Shown here piece after piece: positions 48,765 through 64,000 of a DNA stretch of 64,000 bases (position 1 is its first letter; each line of letters opens with the position of its first letter). The stretch is from Cladosporium halotolerans (Eukaryota), in assembly GCF_011745625.1 (NCBI RefSeq), contig NW_027191507.1:1-64000 (forward strand), in the 5' to 3' direction. The notes beneath the pieces were generated by a model, which saw only the letters and a program-made list of their open reading frames with translations, was not told the DNA's origin and did no database searches. Both the position numbers and the translations under genes were made by a program.

Positions 48765-49568
48765 CTACCGGATCGCACCGTCCGACGTGGTGGCAGCGTC
48801 CACCGTGCAGGGTCCCGGTAATAGCAGCATGCGTCCTTCTTCGCTCGCTTTGCAGCATCGAGACTCTGTCAAGCTCCAGAACCGTTTCTGCTCACCACCC
48901 ACTGTCTCTGCCCACTGCTCTAGAATCTGTTGATTTTGCGGGCTGATGTCTTCCTTCGACTGCTCCGGTTGCCGCACACTCTCGTCGTGATAATCGACCA
49001 CGAAATACCGTCGATGCGCTTTCGATTGAAAAATCGTCTGTACGTATACGGCGTGCCAGTGTTCCGGGTCATCGGCAATAGATTTCCATGCATGTTCCTT
49101 GTAGCAATGTTTTCTGATCTCATCTCGACTCATTGAGATCTTAGTACATCCGGATTCGTCGCATTGAAATCCTCGCATCGGCGACCCGAGCCAGTCGAGC
49201 GGTGCTTGTAGTGACGGCGGTGTTGTGACTTGTGCCGGCTCTAGCAACTCGCAAGCTCCGTATTTCTTCTCTATTGCCGACCTCTCGGAGCTTCGGACTT
49301 TATGTTGTAGCCTTAGATGTGTTGCCAGATTCCGGACGGCATACCCGTGATAACGGCAGACTAGCACTTTATAGTGAGAGTCGTAGTAGAGCCATTCATC
49401 AGCGTTTGCGGCAGCGATCTCTAAGCCGTCTTCCAAGCCAATCGCGCTATCGGATGCGGTTGTGCTATGCTCCGTGCACGAGTTGCTTTGTGCTAGACTC
49501 CACGACCGTTGTCGAACGGGCGTCGACGTTTGCGTGCCCCAGCTCGCAAGTGAGCTGTCATCGCTCAT
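48765..49568 (-). CDS. DUF3505 (OrsD-like) zinc-finger protein related to the N-terminus of the adjacent helicase; probably truncated near 48910
   Basis: YKVLVCRYHGYAV...THLRLQH...GFQC...C...IRKHCYKEHAW...VQTIF...RYFVV parallels HRILICTSCQYAI...THLKEYH...GLRC...C...MRKHCKEKHGW...CQRFF...KYFEV in the helicase. Confidence 0.7.
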   Translation of the reverse strand: MSDDSSLASWGTQTSTPVRQRSWSLAQSNSCTEHSTTASDSAIGLEDGLEIAAANADEWLYYDSHYKVLVCRYHGYAVRNLATHLRLQHKVRSSERSAIEKKYGACELLEPAQVTTPPSLQAPLDWLGSPMRGFQCDESGCTKISMSRDEIRKHCYKEHAWKSIADDPEHWHAVYVQTIFQSKAHRRYFVVDYHDESVRQPEQSKEDISPQNQQILEQWAETVGGEQKRFWSLTESRCCKASEEGRMLLLPGPCTVDAATTSDGAIR

Positions 49569-50241
49569 TTTGTGCTGTTGTTGTTATTTTGTAGAAGCCG
49601 TTTTCAGCTTGTCAAATCGCCGCTTCGCTATAGCACTATATGTTGTACGAAATGAATATGCATCAAGTGTCTAATGTGGGCGCCTGAGCAGATGTGAATG
49701 TCTCACGCGTGAAGACGCGAGCGGTCGTGCTGCGCGGTCGTGCTGCGCCAGTCGCACTGACCCTGAATTCCACGCCCTCCCAATCTTCCATGCTTGTACT
49801 GTCAGCAATGTATCGTTCACTACACGACGGTCAACGCTCCTAAAATCAGTTAAAGTTGCTCGCAGACAGAACACGACACGGAGAAAATTATAGTGCTAGT
49901 TTGAGCGTTATGCGATCGATTTTGCTTGAAGGCACATTTTGCTATGTACGAACGCCAAAACAATGCTTTTGCGCCGACCTTCGCGCTCAAAATATGGTGC
50001 CGCACTCGGTTCCCTGCTTCGTTAGCGCCCATACTTTATAGATGATCTACAGAGCATCGTAGCAATACTTAGTCTCCATGACTTTGCTATAATTTCATTC
50101 ATGATGAAAAGACAACAACTTGGGGATCACTTCTTGGGGAAGACTACAAAATGATTGTAAGCGGAAGTTCAGTAGCTACTTACGGTTAGCGCCGCTTTGG
50201 GGTAAGCTGGGGATCAGTGTTCCCCTCCGCTGCTTTTTGGT

Positions 50242-50381: not shown

Positions 50382-53300
50382 TTATATTGATCGTAGGGCT
50401 AAACCTGCCACTCGCACTGCCTGAATTGCACTCCCCCCTCCGAATCTACTCTCCTCTCCTAACCAGTCAAAATAATCCTCGATATTCTCAAACTTTCGCT
50501 CGAATTGCTCGTGTAGCCATCCTGGCCCCTCAACACTCTCGAATACCCCGAAGCAGAGCGGGAGTACGATGTCTCGGTGTTCACAATCCATGCCACCTCC
50601 ACCTCCTAGCTCTGCTTGTTGACAGATCGATTGCGGATTCAGGCACCAGAAGCAGCTCGTGTATGCCTGTAGCCATTTCCGCCCTCGTCCTTCGTGTCGT
50701 CGTCTGGCTTCGTTCCTGTGTTCAAACACCTCGAATCGCCGTGGGCACGTTGAGAAAGCATGGTCCCAGTTCTGTCTGACTACCCTGCAGAGCAAGCATG
50801 TTCCTTTCACGCTCGCCAGGTCGAGCCGATACTGTGAGAGTTCTGTGTGAGCCCGTAGCCGCTCTTGCTGGATGAGCCCGAGCCCTGTGTGTGGCGTGTC
50901 CTCTTGGACGCTCTCGACCGGGTTGATGGGATCCTGGTGGGCCACCTTGCAGATGTCACACGGTATATCTTCTGGCATACACCATCTTCGATGTCGGGAG
51001 ATATCCAGGTAATCGCTTAACGAGGTCCGGTAGCATTGCTCGCTCTGCAGGTATCGGTGCACCGCCTGTTTGTCCTGGCGCTTTCGAAGCGATACGTCCT
51101 GTCTGTGGTTGCTCGCGTTCTGTAAATCCAGTGGATCGTCATCCATAGCCTTGGGCTGCCAGGTCGCTGGGAGCAACACCATCGAGTACGCACGCTTTCC
51201 GTCTCGCCCTGCTCGACCTGACTCTTGGGCGAAGATGACTAGGGATTCCGGCTCGTCTACATTCATGACGAGTCGGACGTGAGGGTAGTCGAACCCTTCA
51301 GCGAGAGCGGTGGTGGCGACGATATAAGGCGTGCCTGAAGTCTCAATCCATCCATCGAGTATCTCTTTCTTCTCTGCCGGTGTCCCACTCTCTGCCGTGT
51401 ACGCATTGCAGCCGAGTAGCTCTGCCAGATCGTCTGCATCTTTGCACGTCCGAACGTACAGAACGATCTTGTCACAGGCGTGGTCGAAGAACCCCGATTC
51501 TGTCCACGCATCTTTTGCCTCGATTGCAGCCTGTTTGAGAAGGCTTCCGTTGTGGGCGTCGATTTTTCGCACCATGTAGAAAATGTTCAGTCGATTACTA
51601 GGCGCCCTGACAACAGTAGGACGGTGCAGATAGTTTCTCTCCTCGAACTCTGCTCGCATGGATGGCGGAAGAGTGGCTGTCAAATAGACAAACTGAGTTC
51701 TCAAGCTCCGGATGGTTGTTAGCTCGACCATACTTGGTCGATACTCAGCCGCTGTTACAGTCAGATGGCACTCGTCAATCACGATCCGATCGAGCTTTTG
51801 CTCTGCTATTAGCCTCCGAGCATACTTGATGAAATCCTTGGACGAGGCGGCCTCAGCGCTGATGAGTACTAGGGCGGCCTCCCGGCTCTCGCCTGGACGC
51901 CACTCTAGATGGTCGATGCTCATCTCTTTTATACGCCGGATCATATCTCCATAGAGCGAGACGAGCGGTACTACGAGTACTGTTATTCCAGCGTCAGGCA
52001 GAGTACACGGAAGCATAAAGAGCAAGCTCTTCCCGGCTCCTGTGGGAAGGATGGCGACAACCTGCTCGGTCCAAGACATGATTGTGGTGAGAGCTTGCTC
52101 CTGCTCGGCAGATTTCCAGCCTGCTTCCCTGTTGCCGTATAGCTTCTTCACTCCTCCTAGGAGAGCTTCGGTGGACCAAGGTTTCCGAGGACGGTAGATG
52201 CCCATAGCCACCCGTTTCGCCAATCGAGACTCTTGCTCGGCTCTCCCACGTTTCTTTTGCTTGAGCATCATGTCTAACCCCCAGAAGTCCTGCCACAGCG
52301 TCGAAGCCTGTAACCCCATCCGGACTTTTCCATCCCACAAGTTGGCAAATACTGCTCCGGCCTGGTTGGCGTACGCCCGGTTCACCGTCCGCGTCTTGTG
52401 GTTGCGCTGTTCCGTCATGCTTCGGATTGTCGGGTCGATCTCTTCCGCATCTTCGTCGCCTTCGTCAGGGTCGAAACATTCGATCTGGCTGGCGAATTTG
52501 GTCTTGACGATGGCCACTGTGATCTGCCTCCAGTTAGCGACGCGAAGCCGTGGCACGCATGCCCGAACACATGCTTCTTCCAGGTAGCGGCTTAGATGAC
52601 CCTCCGGCCACACTTTTCCATTCTTCTCCCAAAGGTACGGAGAGAGCAACGATCCAGGCGATGTCTGTCGGAAGAATCTCTCCCGTAGTGGCAATACGTA
52701 GACGATGTAATCGAGCAGTAGCTCTGCGATCGGATTAGCGAGGAACCGGACGTTCTCTTTGTAGTCACTCGTTTGTTGCTGGCCCTTATGGTACTGGATG
52801 TGTACCATTATACGGTCGAAGCGAATGACGATGGATCGTCGCCGCTGCGCGTTGCGATATGTCATCGAGAAGAATTCGCTCTCTCGCACAGGCTGTCCCC
52901 CGCTGATGTGTACGAGAACGCTCAATCGCTTCAGAAACTCTTGCACGGTGGCTTTGTAACCAGCCATTGCGCTCTCCCTCCATGCCCATCCGCTGGGTGA
53001 TCGATTGTCTTCGGTAAGGAAGATGCGAGACAGTTGATCCGATCGTTCGATTGCGTTCGTCAGTGCTCTCCCTGTACCGCCGAGGGTCGTTGCGTTATCT
53101 CTGTGCTGAGTAAAACTCCAACCGACGGTCTCGACGTTGACACCATCTTTGAGGAACCGAGGGCTTATTCGGCGGAGACTCTTGAGACCCAGCATCAAGT
53201 CGTCGTAAAGAAGCTGATAACACCCCTGGTACTCAGATGCAAGCAAAGATGGGATCTGATCCATCCGTAGTTCGGTGTCCTCGTATGTCAGCACCTCACT

Positions 53301-54848
53301 TTCGTCCCAAGACGCTTCATGGGTGCCAACGCTCGCACCCGACACCTTGAACAGCAACAGGCGCCATCTGAGGATCTCTCCCATCGGTGTCTCTACGGTC
53401 TGCTGGAGGTACTGGTCGCAGTAAGATCTCACAAGCTCTAGCGTCTTCCCACAGCCTTGTTGTTCCTTCAAGGCGCTATCGTAGAACACTAGCAACTGTA
53501 CGACCCAGATAATGGCCGAGAGACTGCTATTAAAGTTTCCGGGTTCCATCCAGCCGTTTGTCGATGGTTTGATGCTCAGCATGGCGCAGAAGCTCAACAG
53601 AGATGATCCATACCGCCGAGCGCCAGTCGTGTGGCAGATGAGAAGCGTCCTTGGCTCCAGAAGTCGTCTCTTCAATTCCTTTTCCTCTTTATCACCTTCC
53701 TCGTTGTCCTCTTCGACAGGGCTCGCTCGTCTTCGCTGTGCGATCTGGCAGATATCTTGCCATACCGCCAATTGCTCCTCTGTCGCCTCGATGGTGTCTT
53801 CCGGCCTCTGCATGTCGTCGTCATCTTCAGCTATTGCGCTAAAATGGTACTCGTCAGGAGCGACAACTCTGCTGAAGTATGACACGAACCGAAGCGCTAT
53901 TCCGAAATAGCTCACAAGACTCTTCGGCCCTTTGTGTGGATCGAATGGTCTGGTCTTGCCTGTCAGATCGACTTGCGAGGGCTGGAAGCGGCTGAGGACG
54001 ACTCGGCATTGATAAGTCAGCATGCAGTCAGGTCCGTCAAAGCATAGCCTGTGGGCATCCTGTAGTAATGATTGCATCGCATCGATGATGGTACGGAGAT
54101 TGCTCTCCTCTCCTGACGGGGGCACAGCGATTGCTGTTCGAATTTGGTCTTTTCTGAGACCGCATATATGGTCGGCAATGCCTGTCTCTCTTAGCCAAGG
54201 GACTACGGCGGAGACATGGTCGTCAAACCCATGTACTCGGTTCGCATCGTCAGCAGCATCGCGCTGTGCTTGTTGGACGTCGTCTTCTTGGGCGCGGAAA
54301 AACTCATGCTTCTGGGACGTTTGCCTCTCGGTGATTGCACCCTCATCCTGACTTGCCACTTCGAAGTATTTCTGCCAACTGTTGACCTTAAAGAATCGCT
54401 GACACGCACGGTTTTGAGTCCAGATCTTGTTACGCGCATGGAGCTGTTTCGTGCGAACATCCCCTCCCCGCTTTTGCTGATTCGCCCATCCATGTTTCTC
54501 CTTGCAATGTTTCCGCATCAAACGTAAGTTGCGACACACATAGACGCAGGCAATATTCCTGTTATCCGCCCAATCACATCTGAGCCCGTCAAAATAAACT
54601 GGGAGGATCGGAACGGGAGGATCGTTTGGAGTTGGATATACGACGTCTTCATGGACACTCGCCAGAGCGGAGCAACTATCGACCTTGGCAACGAAGGCGT
54701 GACGTCGTTCAAGAGTAAGACGACGGTGGTACTCTTTGAGATGGGTCGTTAAGTGCGATGGCACAATCGCGTATTGACAACTTGTGCATATCAAGATCCT
54801 GTGTTTGTTGTTTATTTCGAAAAGACGGGTGAAATCCACTTCTGCCAT
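50382..54848 (-). CDS. Telomere-linked helicase (TLH)-type protein: DUF3505 zinc fingers, putative tyrosine-recombinase domain, RecQ-type SF2 helicase, Cys-rich C-terminus
   Basis: Intronless 1488-aa ORF with helicase motifs LPTGAGKS, VVPLVSL, IVIDECH, LTAT, IVLYVR, VATTALAEGFD, QESGRAGRDG and the RecQ Zn cluster CYR...C...CDIC. Confidence 0.93.
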   Translation of the reverse strand: MAEVDFTRLFEINNKHRILICTSCQYAIVPSHLTTHLKEYHRRLTLERRHAFVAKVDSCSALASVHEDVVYPTPNDPPVPILPVYFDGLRCDWADNRNIACVYVCRNLRLMRKHCKEKHGWANQQKRGGDVRTKQLHARNKIWTQNRACQRFFKVNSWQKYFEVASQDEGAITERQTSQKHEFFRAQEDDVQQAQRDAADDANRVHGFDDHVSAVVPWLRETGIADHICGLRKDQIRTAIAVPPSGEESNLRTIIDAMQSLLQDAHRLCFDGPDCMLTYQCRVVLSRFQPSQVDLTGKTRPFDPHKGPKSLVSYFGIALRFVSYFSRVVAPDEYHFSAIAEDDDDMQRPEDTIEATEEQLAVWQDICQIAQRRRASPVEEDNEEGDKEEKELKRRLLEPRTLLICHTTGARRYGSSLLSFCAMLSIKPSTNGWMEPGNFNSSLSAIIWVVQLLVFYDSALKEQQGCGKTLELVRSYCDQYLQQTVETPMGEILRWRLLLFKVSGASVGTHEASWDESEVLTYEDTELRMDQIPSLLASEYQGCYQLLYDDLMLGLKSLRRISPRFLKDGVNVETVGWSFTQHRDNATTLGGTGRALTNAIERSDQLSRIFLTEDNRSPSGWAWRESAMAGYKATVQEFLKRLSVLVHISGGQPVRESEFFSMTYRNAQRRRSIVIRFDRIMVHIQYHKGQQQTSDYKENVRFLANPIAELLLDYIVYVLPLRERFFRQTSPGSLLSPYLWEKNGKVWPEGHLSRYLEEACVRACVPRLRVANWRQITVAIVKTKFASQIECFDPDEGDEDAEEIDPTIRSMTEQRNHKTRTVNRAYANQAGAVFANLWDGKVRMGLQASTLWQDFWGLDMMLKQKKRGRAEQESRLAKRVAMGIYRPRKPWSTEALLGGVKKLYGNREAGWKSAEQEQALTTIMSWTEQVVAILPTGAGKSLLFMLPCTLPDAGITVLVVPLVSLYGDMIRRIKEMSIDHLEWRPGESREAALVLISAEAASSKDFIKYARRLIAEQKLDRIVIDECHLTVTAAEYRPSMVELTTIRSLRTQFVYLTATLPPSMRAEFEERNYLHRPTVVRAPSNRLNIFYMVRKIDAHNGSLLKQAAIEAKDAWTESGFFDHACDKIVLYVRTCKDADDLAELLGCNAYTAESGTPAEKKEILDGWIETSGTPYIVATTALAEGFDYPHVRLVMNVDEPESLVIFAQESGRAGRDGKRAYSMVLLPATWQPKAMDDDPLDLQNASNHRQDVSLRKRQDKQAVHRYLQSEQCYRTSLSDYLDISRHRRWCMPEDIPCDICKVAHQDPINPVESVQEDTPHTGLGLIQQERLRAHTELSQYRLDLASVKGTCLLCRVVRQNWDHAFSTCPRRFEVFEHRNEARRRHEGRGRKWLQAYTSCFWCLNPQSICQQAELGGGGGMDCEHRDIVLPLCFGVFESVEGPGWLHEQFERKFENIEDYFDWLGEESRFGGGSAIQAVRVAGLALRSI

Positions 54849-55337
54849 GGTTGATCGAGCAAGTAAGACTTACGACTGCCATTTTTCAGAAACGATAGGA
54901 GCCCTCGTATATCAATAATTTTGTTGCTCCCTGGCAACCTGCCTCCTGTGACTAAAATGCATGTGCCTATGCGTAGACGTGCTTTCATGCCGCAAGAAGA
55001 CGCTCACTCATTCGCAGGTGCTAACGCCAGCTGCGGGGCAGACTTCCAATTTTGTCGCTGGCTGCGTTTTTGGCGTACATATCACCGTCATATTGTCGCA
55101 CCATTCCTGCAAATAAACAAACGAAACGCAGCGAGCAAAAAGAATCATGCTGTCGTATCTTGTTGTTTCAATTTTGGCCAATTACGAGGTTATTAAAGCA
55201 AAGGTCCCGGGTCAGGCAAAGCAAAGGTTTCGGCTTAGCCTTACTTACCCTAACCCTTAATTTATTAGGCATTTCAAAGGTCTCGACTCGAAACCTTTGT
55301 CTTCTAGTGTTAGGGATCTAGGAATTAAGTATTATCC

Positions 55338-55523
55338 CGGCGATCTCGGCGACCTCGACGTAATGAATAGATGTCAGAACACTAGTCGCCTACGCTATCC
55401 TATTAGTAACCGCATATGCTGGACTGGCAGCTGCGGTATTCGCCGATGTACCATTCGCCGGTCACCTGGTCGCCGATGATTTGATCGCCGATTGCCATCT
55501 TTATCCCACTCACAGCTCGCCGA
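55338..55523. promoter_or_regulatory. Array of seven CGGCGA/TCGCCG motifs upstream of the persulfide dioxygenase gene
   Basis: CGGCGA at 55338 and 55347; TCGCCG at 55440, 55455, 55470, 55485 (exact 15-bp period) and 55517. Confidence 0.6.
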
Positions 55524-55635
55524 CGGAGTCGGTAATAAGCCATTGGAAAGGGAACTTCAGTGACCAAAGCTCTCTGGATTTCCCAGCCCGCTTCTACTCG
55601 CACGAAATCCACACTGGACAGCAGCCATATTTAAC

Positions 55636-56865
55636 ATGGTCAAAGCCCCCATCCTCCACTTACCTCGAAGCCCCCACATCTATCACATCCCGCTTAAAAT
55701 CTTGCCGATATTCAATACCAGTCGCCGACCTAGTGCGTACGTCTTTGCGGAAAGGATCAGTCCTTCATTCACGCCTCGGACTCTTCATTTACAGAGTTAC
55801 CAGAGGCAGATTGATCAACAACAACCAAAGTCCACGTTCTTACCAAGACGGCCAATCCCAAGACGGGCGCTACATCACACACCCAACAGCGTACATACCG
55901 AAGTCATGTCCCAAACAGTCACCGTCGACAGCATGCATGATTCAGCCACTGGTACGTGGCAATACATTGTCGCCGATCCGCACACCCTTGACGCCGTCAT
56001 CATCGACCCAGTCTTAGATTACGACATTTCAACACATACCATCAGCACCCACACCGCCGATGGCCTCAAGTCTTTGATTGAAGACAAGGGTTACAAAATC
56101 ATCAGGATCCTCGAGACACATGCGCACGCAGACCATCTGACAGCCGCCTCATACTTGCAAACCGTCCTAGAGCGGGACCATGGTTCTAAGCCGCCTATCT
56201 GCATTGGAAAGCGGATCCGTGAGGTGCAGCGCGTGTTCGGACAGAGATACGGTGTTTACGACTCCGAGCTGAATGCGGCGTTCGATCAGCTCATGGATGA
56301 CGATGAGGAGTTTTGTATTGGCCAGCTAAAAGCCAAAACAATTCATCTTCCGGGCCACACACCAGATCACGTCGGTTACCTCGTCGAAGGTAAGCAATGT
56401 CAGCAGCAAAACAAACGACTTTGGAATTTGCTAATACAAGGCCTCGCAGACAACATCTTTTGCGGCGATTCGGTGTTCAACGCCGACCTAGGCACCGCGC
56501 GCTGCGACTTTCCCGGCGGCAGTGCAAAAGATTTATACCACTCGACTCGCAAGTTGCTGAGCCTGCCCGACAACTACAAGATTTGGACCGGCCATGACTA
56601 CCCGTCTAACGGCCGGATGTGTCCAGTCCCGTACATGAGCGTGGCTGACCAGAAGCAGCGCAATCGCTACCTTTCAGACATTGTATCGGAGCAGGATTTT
56701 CTGCACATGCGCACCCAACGTGATGCACAACTGAAGGAGCCGAAAATGCTACACCCGTCGTTGCAAATCAATATTCGCGGAGGACGGCTACCCGCTCCGA
56801 TGCCATCTGGTGAACGAACCTTAACATTTCCTATTCGACTGGAGACCGAGCACTGGGGAGTTTGA
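55636..56865 (+). CDS. Metallo-beta-lactamase-fold persulfide dioxygenase (ETHE1/Blh-like); in-frame intron 56390-56449
   Basis: TWQYIVAD, IIDPVLD, LETHAHADHLTAA, HLPGHTPDH, IFCGDSVF, GTARCDFPGG, IWTGHDY, LQINIRGG. The R/S-rich N-terminal extension may be a mitochondrial presequence (alternative ATG at 55906). Confidence 0.9.
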   Translation: MVKAPILHLPRSPHIYHIPLKILPIFNTSRRPSAYVFAERISPSFTPRTLHLQSYQRQIDQQQPKSTFLPRRPIPRRALHHTPNSVHTEVMSQTVTVDSMHDSATGTWQYIVADPHTLDAVIIDPVLDYDISTHTISTHTADGLKSLIEDKGYKIIRILETHAHADHLTAASYLQTVLERDHGSKPPICIGKRIREVQRVFGQRYGVYDSELNAAFDQLMDDDEEFCIGQLKAKTIHLPGHTPDHVGYLVEGKQCQQQNKRLWNLLIQGLADNIFCGDSVFNADLGTARCDFPGGSAKDLYHSTRKLLSLPDNYKIWTGHDYPSNGRMCPVPYMSVADQKQRNRYLSDIVSEQDFLHMRTQRDAQLKEPKMLHPSLQINIRGGRLPAPMPSGERTLTFPIRLETEHWGV

Positions 56866-57101
56866 ATAGCATCGCAAGTTTTGCCATTTCAACAATATGC
56901 GCATAGCCAGCATTTATCCATCAACTAGCAATGAACACTGTATGAGTATCACCAACTTCATAATTGTGCGCCATGCTTGTCTTTTGCCACTGGGAGAAGT
57001 TGTTCTGAACTGTTAAGAATGAACTCTCGGGAAACATGCCACAAAGGAAGGAACATAGTGTAATTTGATCTGCAGTAGTCAACAAAGATAATAGTATTTG
57101 A

Positions 57102-58096
57102 TCACAACGACAGCCACGACCCTAGGCGAGGTTTCCAACCACCGCCTGCATGCGGATCTGTCTGGTCCAATCGCCACAACGTGGTCTGCACTCGCAAATC
57201 TGCGAGAAATTCTGCTTCTGTGGATTTTGCGTGCTTATTGAGAGCCGCACATTCGGCGACAGAGTCGCGCGGCTTAGATGAGGTCGACGGGCTACCATCT
57301 CCCTGCTCTCGCCAGACGCGGGTGTTGGCAGGGAGGGACAAGACCCGTTGCATAGAGTTCCAAGCGTCACGATGGTGTGATGAGTCTTTCGACGGATCAT
57401 CGGCAGCGCGGAAAGCGACGCTCTCGAGGTCTGCATGCGCCAAGTCCTCTCTCAGAGTCGCGATTGAGTGTGCGCCAAAAACATCGTTGCCCACTACATA
57501 AGCGCGGCGATGGGGTTTACCAAAGCCTGGCATGTGCATGCATTCCAGAGAGAGCCAGCCCAAAATGATTTCGCCATCATTAAGGCCAGCGCGGAATGTT
57601 GTCTAGAATGAGCTACTAGCACCGTATTTGCGCTGCCACAAAAGGTCGAGGCCAGAGACGGTAGCTTCGTTACAGAGCTGCGGTGCATATCCTGCATTCT
57701 GAGATACCAAGCGGCGGATAGGCAGTGAGGGTTCGCAACATGTGTCTCCAGGATGTAGTCGACAATAGAGCTGCGCTCTTTCATTACAGTAATGATGGCG
57801 TCGGCGGCGCTTGTTGACATGGCAGCCGGGTCAGCACAGGTCAGCACAGCGGTCGCGGACGGGATCGAGCACTACACAGTGCATTGTAGTAGCATCAGCT
57901 ACAATGTATTGCCATGTGTCTGTAGATGCTGCGTATACGTTATGGACAACCGACGAAGTATCGAAGGCCGCGGTCGGCAATTCTGAAGGTACGCCGGATG
58001 TCGTCAGCTTGGAGAAATGGTCGAACAACAAGACTTGATAAGCCTTTTGGCCGTGGATGAGGGGTATACAAAGGTCTTGATCAGGCCCAGAATCAT
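57102..58096 (-). pseudogene. Divergent paralog of the persulfide dioxygenase, metal ligands lost, several frameshifts
   Basis: TWQYIVAD...VLDPV, ILETHVANPHCLSAAWYL, HMPGFGKPH, VFGAHS and LSLPANTRVW are spread across frames. A 10-nt duplication (CTGTGCTGAC x2) near 57830-57850 breaks the frame. Confidence 0.78.
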
Positions 58097-58491
58097 TTGC
58101 AAGAAATGAATTTTGTCGCGTGATGTGAAGGGGGAAGAGAAAACGACGAGGAGACGGGAGCGATGCAGAATGAAGAGTACAAACATTGACGAGCGAGCCC
58201 CCGCGTGCATGTAGTCGCCGATGTTTCCGAGTCCCCGGCCACTCGAGTCCGTGCTTCATGATATTGATCGGTATAGCTCCCTCCCGGGACCCATTGCAAA
58301 TCGTTGCGTTGACGGAAGATTCCATAATTGAACTTCAAGACGAATGTATCTGTTGGCCCCGTACGCCTTTCTCGCTTAGTCATGTTCATGCACCAGGTTG
58401 CATAGGCTGCACACACATAGATGCGAGAAGGGAGGTCACGAGTACGTACGGCGATTTAGTTAGATATCCAGCGTTACTATACAGATAGCTG

Positions 58492-60324
58492 CTAGAGTAT
58501 GTTGTTTGAAAAAAAATTACTTGACATTTCATCTGTCAAAAAAAGATCGAACCAAAATGGGTTATTGCCCATGCTGTCGCTGTCGGCCATGGCACTGTCT
58601 CGGAAAGAAGTAGCGTGAGGCGACAAGGCATGCGTCGAGAAAATGGTCTCGGCAACGACTTTGAGACAACGCGCTGAATTTTGAGCGAGCGTGTATCGCT
58701 CACCTAGCCTTTGCAGTGCACCGAGCATCAGAACGACTCTGTCTCTATGCTGTTGGAGGCAGTCTAGCCCGCCACGGGGTACATGGATGGATCCTGCCGC
58801 GAGTTGAATAACGCATCCTAACACCAGGCCACAAATGAAAAAGGGCGAATTTCTGTCTAAACGCCATGGCACAGTAGCGAGGTTCGCCAAATCCTTTGAA
58901 GCGGCGATAGCTTTGACAGTGTGGTGTCTGGAAGTAGGCGCCAATTGTATATAGCCGTTCGCACAGGCGATGTCTTTTGCAGACGGCACCGTGTCGGGCA
59001 GGTCGCTCCTGGGGAAATGAAGGAAGATGGTAGCGCACGCAATGATGCAGCGTGCTTCGAAAAGCATCAAATCGACATCTCCCGAAGGACCAACGACGTC
59101 TCTATATAAGAACGGGAGATTGTAATCCCAACCTGCAAGCGCGTTATTTAGTGCCTGGATGTTGTCAGGAAGAGCATCGTCCTGGGAAGCAATAGTCAGA
59201 ACTCGGCTGACAAGCGGATCGCATCTATGCGAAAGCACAAAGTTGAGAAGCTGGCTTGCGGCTCCGGTGAAAAAACTCGATTCTCAAACGCTCGGAGTAT
59301 AGGAGGGCTTGGATCACATTCACCTGCTTCATAGGGCCTGGGCACATGGTAGAAAGGGGAGCGTCTTTGCGCAGGCGGTTTGGAAAATCGGACGGCGGTG
59401 TATCGCCGCGAAATAGATGTCGACGGTGTACAGCTCCCACCATGTCCTTCGGAGACTCTCTTCCACCAAAGAGGAACAAGCTGAATTTTCTCGCGCGAAG
59501 GTCGGCTCCTGCATGCCCAAATCCAACACGATGCTGGCAGCACGAGTGACACACGCGGCGGCCTCTGTGGGCTGCTGACGGGCGTGAAAAATGATAGCGT
59601 ACAAAACCAGTGCTTGGACCCTAGAGGGCTTCTGCTCGTGAGGCTCCAACATGGCAGAAGAAACTGCCTCTTGGAGCCCTAAGTCTCCAGGCATGGACGT
59701 CGCATAGTGCTGTCCAGCGAAGCATACGACCAGATCGAGGTAGTGCGGATACTGTTGCGCCGCGTAAAAAGGCCTAGGCACAAGGAAGGGATGTGCGGCA
59801 AAGAAATGGATATAGAAGAGGTTGAGCGGGCGGTCGTGGTCGGAAGGATTGAGTGCCCACGTCGACGGCACGGCGGGAGTTAAGGATGGCAAAGGCAGTT
59901 GTGGATTGCTGAGGCATCCTGGGACAGTGGATGTTGACGAACAAGAAGCGGCAAGGGCCGGACAGGCGGCGAGGGCGGTATGGGAGGTGTTGCTGCTGGC
60001 GGACCGTGCAGATGCGGCTGTGGGCGGCGTCGGTGGCGCGGTGGTGTCTGCAGCGGGACCAGCTCCTGCCGCAGCAGGCAAAGGTCGGTGATTGCGAGGT
60101 CGATGTGGAGAAGCATTTGCATGTGCCGGATCGCCTCGCCTGCCGCGGCGGCCAAGTCCACGGCGGGAAGCGGTGTAAGAGCAGGCAACAGCGTCGACAA
60201 GGCAGCGGCCACAGGTGGGCGACGCGCCGTCGCACTTGAGATGTTTGCGTCGACACCCATCACACGCCAGCGGCGCCGGGCGAGCGGTGGCGTCAGAGTT
60301 GGCAGCGGCGGTGGCGGTGGCCAT
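58492..60324 (-). CDS. Zn(II)2Cys6 transcription factor with a fungal middle-homology region; apparent frameshifts near 59331 and 59210
   Basis: ACDGCRRKHLKCDGASPTCGRC....AC, FYIHFFAAHPFLVP, EESLRRTWWELYTVD, LPFLP, FLHFPRS, SPFFICG. Confidence 0.88.
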
Positions 60325-60679
60325 GAAGGAGAAGATATCGATAAATTGCATGTCCAGCCTTTGAGAACTCCAGCTTGTCGCCGGTCTTGTGTTGTGAGAG
60401 GACAGCCCTGAGCAAGAATTCGGCGACTGGGACTCGGCGACTACAAGTCTCCACAAGCGGTGGCGTCAGCTCATCGCCCGTTGAGGAACAGACCCCGAGA
60501 AAGATCGCCGACAGCAACCTTCAGTCCCGAAGACGCCGGATGGCTAAGATCAATCAATTTACATCTCGTGCTTCAGCTCCTGCAACTCCCGCACTCGCGT
60601 CGCAGCAACTAATTACCTCTTGGGAGCGCACACATACCATCGAGCCTCCAAACCAAGCCACGCATCATCCCTCGCGAAA

Positions 60680-60962
60680 ATGTGCAAAAAGGCAACCTGT
60701 GACACGTGCGGTCGGTCTCTCCTACCTACTCTTCACTCCGCCCGATTCTAACGCCTTTTGTGTCGCAGGCAAGCGATCCTGGTGGGGATGCGGCAATGTA
60801 TTACTGCTGCCAACTCTCTACGCGACAAGCATAAACTAACGTGTCGGCAAGCACATCCCAAGCATCATGGATTCCGTGCAGGAGCAAGACAGATGCAAAT
60901 GCGGGCCCAGGGTCTTTGCGGAGGGCAAGGAGTATCCTCCGAAGGCCGCTCAAGCCGATTGA
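60680..60962 (+). CDS. 56-aa Cys/His microprotein, 3 exons (60680-60710, 60769-60797, 60852-60962)
   Basis: Spliced product MCKKATCDTCGKRSWWGCGNHIPSIMDSVQEQDRCKCGPRVFAEGKEYPPKAAQAD*. Both introns are GT-AG with CTAAC branch points. Confidence 0.85.
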
Positions 60963-61655
60963 CTGTAAGGAGGAGGATAGAACGTTTGGGAGGCTCCGAT
61001 AGAGCATCTACGTACCACTTTCCCACCCACGTCTGTTGCCATTTGGAGTCCAGATCATACCTGTACACCCTTCAATCGTCTCCTTCATAGACATGGAACC
61101 AACCTTGGCTATCGCCATCAAATCACCAGCGTTTCGAATCATGCTTGCACAAGCTCTGCTAGATGAAGCGAACCAACCCAATCCTTCATTCTGTTCTATC
61201 GCAGGTCAGGTTTGCTCGTCGCAGAATTCACATACGCGCGGCAACTGGCCGGAATGTTACACAGCTAGTCCGGACACACACTCTTGGAGCCATTAGCCAT
61301 TAGGAATGGTCGGGCGACAATGAGTGCACACTGAACTTTCGCCTTACCTCGGCGAGCTCAACATTAATATTCTGTAATCGCCGTCGAAGTCGGCGATCAA
61401 ACCCAAGGTCTTGACCTTGCCTTAGGGAGGTAGACTGTGACATGGGTCGTGCAAGACAAGGTCTTCGATTACAAAGATGGTTCGCCACCGGCACTATATG
61501 AACGACGAGTTCCGTCCGCAGCGTTTCCAAGTCCCCCTATCCGCCACAGAAACCGTAACATTAACAAAGCCAGCGCGAATTGTGCCTGTTAGAAACGCCG
61601 CCACTACCGAGCCGTTGTCACAGCGTGTTGACGCGATCTTCCTAAATCATTCAAC

Positions 61656-62729
61656 ATGCTATCCGGATCCATATCCGCCGCTTGCACAGGAGCAATCTTC
61701 GGCGCCTCACTCACAGCATCGGGTGTCTATCTCCCTTTTGTGATAATCGGTCAATTCCGGCTGGCAGACTTCCACATGTTCCACGTCTTTGCAACAGCCA
61801 TGGGCTCAAGCGCGTAAGTAGCAAGTCAAACCGTCGCCACGAGCTCGCAAACGTTGTTTGCGCGTGCGCTAATTTTTCACTGCTCCAGTATCGTCATGCT
61901 CGCATTGGATAAACTCGACATCATCAAGCGGCCGGTACGAATGAACTCGACGCTAGATCTTTGGTCACCATACGACGCAAATCTGGCTGGCGGCGTTCTA
62001 GTCGGAATCGGAATGGCGCTGTCAGGGGCATGTCCTGGCACGGTCCTGGTTCAACTTGTCCAAGGAATACCATCTGCAAAGGCCACAGCCTCCGGAGCCT
62101 TGCTAGGTGCTGCACTTTACATATGGTTCAAAGAGCGGCGCAAGAAGGCTCAACTTGGGGCTGAAGGGGAACGAAACACCTGCAGAAAGACGATATCTGA
62201 CGTGTCCAAAGTCCCTGAATTTGCCGTATACTCATTATTTGGGGTGGCGATCGCGGTGATTTTGCGATTTACACGAGCTGGGAGCGAGCAATCTTTGGCA
62301 TTGCCCGTGGCCGGTGGCTTTCTGATCGGCTGCGCGCAAGCCGTGTCGCTGCTACTCACTCGCAGCCCTCTCGGTGTCTCGACCGCCTACGAACACCTTA
62401 GCCGACACATCCTCAATGCATTGCGCGGAGAGATTGGAGCAAGGCCAAGCCTTCCCTCGAAACCCATCATCTTTTCCCTTGGTATCGTTGCCGGAAGCAT
62501 TGCCTTGCTTGCGAGCAATCCCAGCTTCGGCAACTCAGCACACGAGTCTGCTGTACCGGCATGGCAGGCTTTCATTGGGGGTGTTGTCATGACTTTCGGC
62601 GCCAGGCTGGGGGATGGCTGCACTTCTGGACATGGATTGTCTGGCCTCAGTGCCATGTCTGCTTCAAGTCTTGTGACAGTGGCTGCGATGTTTGGTGCTG
62701 GTATCTCGACCAGGGCGTTGATGGCATGA
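61656..62729 (+). CDS. YeeE/YedE-family sulfur (thiosulfate) transporter; intron 61814-61888
   Basis: GAIFGASLTASGVY...QF...F, GGVLVGIGMALSGACPGT, LGVSTAYE and GGVVMTFGARLGDGCTSGHGLSG: the Cys-containing YeeE motifs in a multi-TM protein. Confidence 0.9.
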
Positions 62730-64000
62730 TGCAGAAGAGGCTACCGATGCAAGATCATCGAACCCTTCGATTGCAGAACTCATCTCCTCCTTCCAGACAC
62801 TTGCGCGGCACTCGACATTACATGGCCAGAAGCCAAACACATATGCAGTCTTGCTGGTTTCCAGCAGTCTCAGATCGAGGACAGTGAAGACATTCGCATG
62901 TGGGTGGGTCCGCTACTTAACTCTTGCAAGTATACTTATTTCTTCTCGTGCAGTCACCGAGCCAATTTCATGACCTCCGTCTCTTGATATGCTCCATGAC
63001 TCGATGTGGTCCTTGCTCTAAAGGTACTCCTTACCCTAACGAGGATCGCCTCTTCACATGCGCTGTGCCCAAATTTTCTCCAATCTTTATCACAGCTTCG
63101 CCCCGCAAGTCACTTGTATATCTCAATCCTCAGCTTCCTCTACCCCCTTGAATACTGTGATCGGGCAACAAGCCAAGAGGCTTCCTGCAATTTCAGACAT
63201 TCAATACACCATGATGCTGGCCAGACATTGATACAATGTCCTGCAATTGTTCCTTTCGCATTTGGCAGGAAGCATTTATCCAGTAGCTCAACAATAAATC
63301 TTGAGCCTTCCTCAGAACTCTAGCGTGATTGTGTTCCACTCCTGATTCTGTGGCCATGTTGTGATGGTGTAAGAGATCTTTGATTTTGAGTGAACTATTG
63401 AAGAGGCAAAATCATCTACATACACAAGTGAAGCGGAAAGTATCGTTCGCCTCGAGCCGGAATTCTTGGCAATTTGCCACCCGTAGCTCGAACGCCATTA
63501 CTCTTGCTTCGCCCGCGGCGTGCCACTGTACACCACTCCGGGATATCTCCTCACTCACTGCATCCTCATCGGCTGGTCGCCGTTTCACATTCATGCATTA
63601 TTGACTCGGGTGGCTGTATGCCATTCGTTCGTTCGCTTGCGACTCGACCTCCTCGGCCTTGCTGTCGACTTTCGTCGCGCCCGGTCTTTCGATGTGAGTT
63701 GCAAAGAGCGCTTTCGCTCTTCTGGTAGCCCGCTGCTCGACCTCGGCCACGATTGACATTTGTCGCAGGTTTTCCGAACGTCTGAGACGCGAGGGGTTGT
63801 TGCTGCTCGTCACTGAGGACCTTGGGATCGACTTTCATCATACCTGGCCCAGAGATTCGAGTTGCTCGTGCTGGCTGCATGCTTGCCACTCCTGGTCGGT
63901 GCATCGACTTGTATCGTGCCCGGTTTAGACGTGCGTGCCGCGAGGTTTGCCCGCTGCTTATCAACCATGACTTGGCCCTTGGGCATTGCCTTGGGATGCT

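Follow-up and report, generated by a model that had tools for sequence, protein, structure and literature searches.

In several bacteria, genes for persulfide oxidation are linked to genes for YeeE/YedE proteins. A BigR-controlled yeeE-yedE-pdo2 operon is known in bacteria (PMC7315123), and YedE1E2 is described as a transporter of zero-valent sulfur (PMC10812762). Blh and SdoA together constitute the type II persulfide dioxygenases (PDOs), a class that one survey across bacterial genomes reported as restricted to Proteobacteria (PMC5702731). As for fungi, the steps following Hmt2 in Schizosaccharomyces pombe and the mechanism of fungal thiosulfate uptake are stated to be obscure (PMC8310684). 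According to PMC10812762, the STRING database places yedE close to sulfur genes "in bacteria and fungi"; Figure S2 in the supplement of that paper shows three bacteria only. In our literature search, neither a fungal PDO-YeeE cluster nor a function of fungal YeeE nor the sequence motif TCG(G/C)CGA was found to be described. Here, we describe a locus of the salt-tolerant mould Cladosporium halotolerans that combines such a cluster with this motif, located in a stretch of 64,000 nucleotides which we call the window.

Both strands were read and scanned against Pfam. Between 55 and 64 kb, five consecutive features were found: a metallo-beta-lactamase-fold protein (+ strand, gene 1), a diverged copy of it (- strand, gene 2), a Zn2Cys6 factor (- strand, gene 3), a three-exon small gene (+ strand, gene 4) and a Sulf_transp gene (+ strand, gene 5). 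An initial annotation had proposed five contiguous genes here, and all five were recovered at the positions it had assigned to them. With moderate confidence, we interpret the locus as a co-regulated fungal module that would handle reactive inorganic sulfur.

Recurrent linkage and a common promoter motif

We scanned metagenome sequences with a YeeE alignment and kept 80 loci, 19 of which looked eukaryotic by their density of open reading frames (ORFs) and their split genes. Ten of these fungal-type loci (nine independent) possess at least 5 kb of flanking sequence, and in two of the ten, L005 and L012, a PDO gene lies within 10 kb of YeeE. In L005, YeeE is accompanied by a PDO (50% identical, E 8e-102), an ortholog of the Zn2Cys6 factor, and DUF1275 and PQ-loop proteins. 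In L012, YeeE and a PDO (48% identical, E 2.5e-97) are flanked by genes for a SulP sulfate permease (L012:3491-6341) and a TPMT methyltransferase (L012:11896-12569), and a factor ortholog is present as well. Among the flanked metagenome loci, only these two harbour orthologs of gene 3 (E 9e-29 in L005, E 4e-22 in L012), and an unrelated Fungal_trans factor in L016, taken as a control, gave no match to it. Furthermore, in Neophaeotheca triangularis, PDO g3837 (GAB7358606.1) and YeeE g3841 (GAB7358610.1) are encoded on one 856-kb contig, with accessions four apart. The initial annotation had made its reading depend on co-location of these genes in other fungi, and this was indeed observed, once in Neophaeotheca and twice among the metagenome loci (L005 and L012). 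The same three gene kinds occur together in four loci in which the YeeE proteins are only 38-62% identical, and the PDO-linked YeeE genes fall into two widely separated fungal clades. The linkage is recurrent but facultative.

The three promoter regions of the locus in the window (1357 bp in total, belonging to the PDO gene, the factor and microprotein genes, and the YeeE gene) contain 10 exact copies of TCG(G/C)CGA, compared with 0.22 expected (P 5.5e-14). TCGGCGA is palindromic about its central base. The PDO promoter region (55337-55523) carries five exact copies of TCGGCGA/TCGCCGA, at 55346, 55440, 55470, 55485 and 55517, as well as two end-variants. The intergenic promoter common to the divergent factor and microprotein genes (60352-60679) carries three, at 60420, 60434 and 60505, together with one variant. 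A TCGGCGA pair (61349-61396) is situated 266 and 307 bp 5' of the YeeE start codon. One further copy precedes gene 2. Elsewhere in the window, there are 9 copies in 56 kb, and the window total is 23 copies versus 13.4 expected.

In other fungi, the 700 bp before the YeeE start were examined in 14 loci for which upstream sequence was available. These 10.1 kb contained 18 copies of the motif, as opposed to 26 copies in 180 kb (P 4e-14), the background frequency being 0.14-0.16 per kb. When 5202 7-mers were scanned in an unbiased way, TCG(G/C)CGA ranked first upstream of fungal YeeE (2e-14). It was present in 10 of the 14 loci, or in 8 of 12 independent ones; alignable upstream DNA was found only in L006/L007 and L010/L011. 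The YeeE-upstream copies are mostly paired and located 180-600 bp from the ATG, as in the window, and in L012 three further copies precede the SulP permease gene. Since the promoters share an enriched motif, these counts argue for co-regulation of the genes. The motif itself was not described as a binding site in the literature searched, the sole match being an incidental one in a Beauveria promoter. Because the same gene kinds co-occur in other fungi and one 7-mer is common to their promoters, the grouping appears to exceed chance.

Two side observations concern the neighbourhoods of fungal YeeE genes. In two fungal loci that are unrelated to each other (L005:13149-14282 and L006:7526-8398), the gene next to YeeE or PDO encodes a DUF1275 membrane protein, and a reducing polyketide synthase gene (L010:429-5917), probably unrelated, lies a few kb upstream of YeeE, also in the near-duplicate locus L011.

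Interpretation and alternatives

According to the interpretation we favour, the YeeE/YedE protein would move sulfur species with exposed sulfane sulfur, i.e. thiosulfate or zero-valent sulfur, across a membrane, and glutathione persulfide arising from it would be oxidised to sulfite by the type II PDO. The physiology first suggested for the locus, detoxification of H2S, polysulfides or S8 or else scavenging of thiosulfate, is a putative one. The Zn2Cys6 factor encoded in the cluster is the likeliest candidate for reading TCG(G/C)CGA at the PDO, factor/microprotein and YeeE promoters. The 56-residue cysteine-rich protein might act as an accessory, probably as a metal- or persulfide-binding carrier or sensor, while the fifth member would represent a conserved PDO paralog without catalytic function, here in a copy that lost its integrity recently.

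A number of observations weigh against this interpretation. As for regulation, L005 has the cluster and yet no exact copy of the motif, only CCGCCGAC variants, and no motif was found upstream of the factor genes in L012. As for linkage, it is not general: seven other independent flanked fungal YeeE loci are without a PDO, the neighbours in the remaining flanked loci being unrelated (P450, polyketide synthase, COX15 and others). Moreover, PDO is far commoner in Ascomycota than YeeE, which suggests a YeeE-independent role for it. As for the substrate, the position of C22 in the reference StYeeE is occupied by tyrosine in fungal YeeE, and gene 5 scores far below the cutoffs of the TsuA equivalogs NF052577 and NF041049 (40.6 versus 400 and 17.3 versus 645, respectively), so thiosulfate is not assured as the substrate. 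Finally, the window itself contains a dead member of the cluster, a factor gene with one intron (near 59262-59345) to which no canonical donor could be assigned, and adjoining transposon-like genes. Because of the dead paralog, the intron problem and the transposon-rich surroundings, the module may be eroding in this strain. The proposal of a fungal counterpart of the bacterial PDO-YeeE/YedE systems, with a fungal regulator replacing BigR, holds in its core, in favour of which co-location and a shared motif speak; in its original wording it is unsupported in that the paralog is dead and the linkage is not general.

The main rival, possible and clearly the less probable of the two, is a regulon for sulfur acquisition instead of detoxification: the motif would mark sulfur-limitation genes, YeeE would import thiosulfate beside the sulfate permease, and the PDO would make assimilable sulfite. 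A dioxygenase is dispensable for assimilating sulfane sulfur, whose reduction by glutathione yields sulfide directly. L012 also carries a methyltransferase of the TPMT type (Pfam), to which thiol and sulfide methylases belong, and this again points away from acquisition. On the other hand, the SulP sulfate permease is situated inside the L012 cluster, behind three copies of the motif. Besides, the characterised YeeE/TsuA takes up thiosulfate for cysteine synthesis (PMC7449682), and the mechanism by which fungi take up thiosulfate is stated as unknown (PMC8310684), both of which would suit an acquisition role. In bacteria, however, it is sulfide or sulfane sulfur that induces the PDO-YedE modules (PMC7315123, PMC9959259), which speaks against acquisition.

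An improbable alternative to the reactive-sulfur module is a chance neighbourhood, in which a housekeeping (probably mitochondrial) PDO happens to lie next to an unrelated membrane protein and the motif is a general promoter element. The frequent PDO homologs in fungi without a YeeE match and the unrelated neighbours of most fungal YeeE loci are in line with this, as are the gene order and orientation, which vary among the window, L005 and L012. It is difficult to reconcile with the recurrence of the same gene kinds next to such divergent YeeE proteins. The factor orthologs are specific too, matching at E 1e-22 to 1e-29 while the other Zn2Cys6 factor in the loci gave no match, and the 7-mer, the top word of the unbiased scan, is rare elsewhere.

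Starting from the co-regulated module, a broader picture can be drawn, although only tentatively. TCG(G/C)CGA would define a fungal reactive-sulfur regulon read by a Zn2Cys6 family, with YeeE as a near-universal target and PDO, sulfate permease and other sulfur genes as facultative ones; the Cys6-His microprotein might then be a stand-in for TusA/YeeD, the relay partner of YeeE, or a persulfide sensor gating the factor. In any case, the locus supplies concrete parts for fungal sulfane-sulfur handling beyond the SQR step, a poorly known area: a type II PDO, a eukaryotic YeeE family, a candidate regulator and a sharply defined cis-element upstream of YeeE in very divergent fungi, as well as two families without annotation, the cysteine-rich microprotein and the non-catalytic PDO paralog. 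This would bear on how fungi tolerate saline or sulfide-rich habitats and fungicides based on sulfur, and it bears on the rise of eukaryotic inorganic-nutrient gene clusters by convergence with bacterial operons.

The five genes and their surroundings

Gene 1 (55906-56865, + strand) consists of exons 55906-56389 and 56450-56865, separated by a 60-nt intron (56390-56449) that keeps the frame; its spliced product equals P0001, C. halotolerans WHR41_09234, letter for letter. Full-length matches were obtained to solved type II PDOs, namely 4efz (1.4e-60), 9g8t (PaPDO, 4.7e-57) and 4ysk (PpPDO, 5.1e-57), as against only 2e-12 for ETHE1 (4chl) and 5e-10 and 1e-9 for the rhodanese-fused 3tp9 and 3r2u. 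The iron of PaPDO is ligated by His71, His146 and Asp163, a 2-His-1-carboxylate arrangement (PMC12856154). Opposite them in the alignment, gene 1 has H, H and D; its iron triad is intact and falls in the segments THAHADH, PGHTPDH and CGDSVF, starting at P0001 residues 71, 149 and 166. HxHxDH and PGHT are kept in all 120 listed homologs. The top NCBIfam match is Blh (NF040641; E 1.7e-81, 274 bits compared with a cutoff of 625), covering profile positions 140-420 of 423 only. This is the dioxygenase half, the N-terminal sulfurtransferase (DUF442-type) being absent. From these alignments, gene 1 is assigned to the type II (SdoA/Blh-group) PDOs, with predicted activity. Since Blh and SdoA make up type II and the best NCBIfam match is the dioxygenase half of Blh, the Blh part of the original label "ETHE1/Blh-like" was correct, while ETHE1 is only a distant relative. 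The idea that Blh represents type III was discarded on the basis of PMC5702731 and the NCBIfam match.

The reading frame of gene 1 is open upstream to an ATG at 55636, adding 90 in-frame codons (55636-55905, + strand) rich in basic and hydroxylated and poor in acidic residues. Extensions of at least 70 residues with like composition are present in 72 of the 120 PDO homologs, and the sequence directly before the annotated start resembles P0002. The annotated model (299 residues, start 55906) thus probably starts too late and the extension is probably coding. It is possibly a mitochondrial presequence, and because basic, hydroxyl-rich extensions are frequent in homologs and the frame is open here too, the PDO is probably targeted to an organelle. 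In a quick tree, gene 1 clusters with proteins of Hortaea and Neophaeotheca, both Dothideomycetes (support 0.989), and protein searches found the family to be widespread across Ascomycota. A separate contig assembly, X2, is possibly the source of the stretch and is identical to the window over 54900-63900. Its record 8, a separate 6.1-kb contig, matches the PDO segments 55957-56013 (11 differences) and 56629-56667 (6 differences); as both conserved segments are matched with differences, a second PDO paralog probably exists elsewhere in the organism.

Gene 2 (about 57102-58007, - strand) shares 24% identity with gene 1, and of the three iron ligands it has retained the first alone. An exhaustive protein search with its C-terminal ORF (E 0.001 or better) matched 22 proteins, including the intact 304-residue P0244 and a set of about 300 residues each at 35-41% identity. 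Identity to P0244 is 65% over the whole frame -3 alignment, which crosses a frame-shifted middle, and 78% over the C-terminal 145 residues. Members of this family (P0244, P0245, P0247, P0248, P0250 and P0254; about 300 residues) share the blocks SAAWYLRMQ, WQRKYGA and FGAHS. HxHxDH occurs in none of the eight members fetched, none of the five scanned has a Pfam match, and the family matches NCBIfam Blh at 1e-21. It appears to be a conserved fungal family derived from PDO and predicted to be non-catalytic. The Meristemomyces member LTR62_003585 is not near YeeE (LTR62_000889) of the same species.

Alignment with P0244 exposes three lesions in gene 2. A perfect tandem duplication of 10 bp (57848-57829) is followed by a gap near 57692-57684 that shifts the frame, and a TAG stop lies in frame at 57605-57603. 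The indels (+10 and about -16 nt) cancel each other, so that the N- and C-terminal thirds share a reading frame and only the middle third is out of it. Judging by these lesions, gene 2 is a pseudogene in this genome, and its inactivation appears recent, because the shifted middle third is still identical to P0244 at 36 of 43 residues. As the X2 assembly is identical across the region, the lesions are not an artefact of one assembler. Introns that would rescue the gene were rejected, since GT..AG spans identified by eye measure only 16-38 nt and the intact, intronless P0244 reveals the indels and the nonsense codon. Of the "metal-less paralog" initially proposed, the lack of metal ligands was thus confirmed and the status of a working gene was not.

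Gene 3 (58492-60351, - strand) encodes a factor with the Zn_clus (1.8e-09) and Fungal_trans (7.6e-10) domains of Pfam, i.e. the zinc cluster and the fungal middle homology domain, in agreement with its first description as a Zn2Cys6 factor. It is interrupted by the one intron mentioned above, the borders of which are approximate. A double frameshift in this gene was rejected because the N- and C-terminal homology blocks share a frame.

Gene 4 (60680-60962, + strand) consists of exons 60680-60710, 60769-60797 and 60852-60962, and both introns are of the GT..AG type with CTAAC branch sites. These canonical introns and the 56-residue product bear out the Cys/His microprotein that had been suspected here, and gene 4 is, on this evidence, a real three-exon gene for a cysteine-rich protein of no known family. 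The pattern reads M-C-x4-C-x2-C-x-K-x-[ST]-W-[WF]-G-C-G-x-H-I-P-S-[VI]-M-D ... R-C-x-C-x-P ... G-K-x-Y-P-P-K. On a 2.3-kb contig (L009), a homolog whose first exon is likewise 31 nt long and ends in phase 1 is separated by about 300 bp from a distantly related YeeE paralog. In an index of 5.8 billion proteins, only two annotated homologs were found, in Aureobasidium melanogenum (62 residues) and Exophiala viscosa (58 residues), so the idea of a widespread fungal protein was not borne out; both Aureobasidium and Exophiala carry YeeE. No Pfam or NCBIfam family matched, TusA models included, and a profile search of the PDB gave nothing below E 0.2. The AlphaFold2 model (predicted local distance difference test score, pLDDT, 66) had no Foldseek match at E 0.001 or better, and a feature search of the Atlas yielded, as a mere lead, scores of 0.93-0.95 to small unnamed eukaryotic clusters.

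Gene 5 (61656-62729, + strand; exons 61656-61813 and 61889-62729) encodes a membrane protein of 333 residues. Its assignment to the YeeE/YedE transporter family was upheld: exon 2 matches Sulf_transp (PF04143) at E 1.5e-26, with 94.2 bits against a gathering score of 27, and its ortholog P0154 reaches 117.7 bits in a match that spans profile positions 2-308 of 310. In StYeeE, C91 and C293 are essential and the C22A variant still complements, whereas the cysteine equivalent to C22 is essential in Escherichia coli (PMC7449682). The equivalents of C91 and C293 are invariant in 50 of 50 fungal YeeE sequences. Named fungal carriers (P0154-P0233) are mainly rock-inhabiting or extremotolerant black fungi, namely Friedmanniomyces, Cryoendolithus, Recurvomyces, Meristemomyces, Vermiconidia, Acidomyces, Aureobasidium, Exophiala and Cladophialophora. 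The carriers also include Umbelopsis and the lichen fungus Pyrenula, and the distribution is patchier than that of PDO. A Paracoccidioides YeeE/YedE protein is listed in a proteome table (PMC12565617).

Prokaryotic relatives were taken from one genome per species, as the best 80 of 606 pattern-matching stretches. They are 27-36% identical to the fungal protein (tblastn; one short best segment reaches 56%), the nearest bacterial ones 30-36%, and most are split into two genes. A metallo-beta-lactamase/PDO-like gene lies within 6 kb in 22 of these 80 loci. In two alphaproteobacterial loci, L083 and L107, a PDO resembling type II (38-40% identical) lies close to YedE halves; it is accompanied by an ArsR regulator in L107, and by TauE and an SQR-like gene in L083. 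In fungi, the N-terminal exon boundary of YeeE is common to L005, L012 and other loci, i.e. the intron position has been kept across distant clades. A recently transferred bacterial blh-yeeE operon, domesticated in a fungus, would fit these two alphaproteobacterial loci and the Proteobacteria-limited distribution of type II PDOs in the bacterial survey (PMC5702731), but is very improbable, because the bacterial YeeE proteins are distant and the fungal intron positions conserved, and since the PDO groups with those of other Dothideomycetes and the G+C content of the locus is similar to that of the rest of the window.

Directly upstream of the locus, an intact ORF of 1488 residues (50382-54848, - strand) carries OrsD and DEAD/Helicase_C domains. 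Further ORFs of the window include a second OrsD (48768-49583, - strand) and a Tc5-transposase helix-turn-helix (1-750, - strand), and the upstream content resembles transposons or telomere-linked helicases. At about 55230-55250, just 5' of the PDO promoter, there are two partial CCCTAA-like telomere repeat units. No additional sulfur genes were found among the large ORFs of the window, and SQR, TauE and rhodanese were all missing from the ORFs scanned across it. Pfam revealed no HTH_5/ArsR match among the ORFs of the locus either, its sole regulator being the Zn2Cys6 factor.

Comparison with known systems

Gene 1 resembles the bacterial type II PDOs PpPDO (4YSK/4YSL), PaPDO (9G8T; PMC12856154) and that of Burkholderia pseudomallei (4EFZ) in its full-length alignment, its triad and its type II C-terminal region. 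It differs from them in being eukaryotic, with one intron and a probable N-terminal targeting extension, and its activity is a predicted one. With the mitochondrial pathway of sulfide oxidation (SQR, ETHE1, rhodanese and sulfite oxidase; Hmt2 in S. pombe), the locus has the PDO step in common, and the extension is compatible with mitochondrial targeting; the fungal enzyme is of type II, however, and not ETHE1, which is type I, and there is no SQR in the locus.

The second system to be compared is YeeE/TsuA with YeeD/TsuB (6LEO, 8J4C; PMC7449682). Common to both are the Sulf_transp family, the two essential loop cysteines and a tiny cysteine-containing neighbour. The similarity of gene 5 is distant (E 1e-4), below the TsuA cutoffs and with tyrosine in place of C22. 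Unlike the TusA-like YeeD/TsuB, the small fungal protein resembles nothing significantly in Pfam, in NCBIfam or, by sequence or fold, in the PDB.

The closest parallel is offered by the BigR/PigS-controlled blh(pdo2)-yedE/yeeE operons of Xylella, Agrobacterium, Serratia and Acinetobacter (PMC7315123, PMC10812762, PMC5823870), in which a type II PDO, YeeE/YedE and a dedicated regulator are linked, as here. PDO is linked to YeeE/YedE in the window, in Neophaeotheca, in L005 and in L012, and the bacterial form of this linkage is represented by L083 and L107. The regulator, however, is a Zn2Cys6 factor and not a dithiol sensor of the ArsR family, and each gene has its own palindrome-marked promoter instead of belonging to one operon. 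Fungal YeeE (about 330 residues) is encoded by one gene with an intron, whereas the bacterial counterpart consists of two half-size genes, and the fungal PDO lacks the N-terminal sulfurtransferase half of Blh. SQR, TauE and rhodanese do not accompany the fungal genes in the window, while the cysteine-rich microprotein and the triad-less PDO paralog are extra to the bacterial arrangement. The resemblance to bacterial operons noted in the initial annotation is consequently retained as an analogy and abandoned as a case of operon transfer, the bacterial YeeE being too distant and mostly split. By this comparison, the locus is best regarded as an analogue built from fungal genes rather than as a member of the BigR system.

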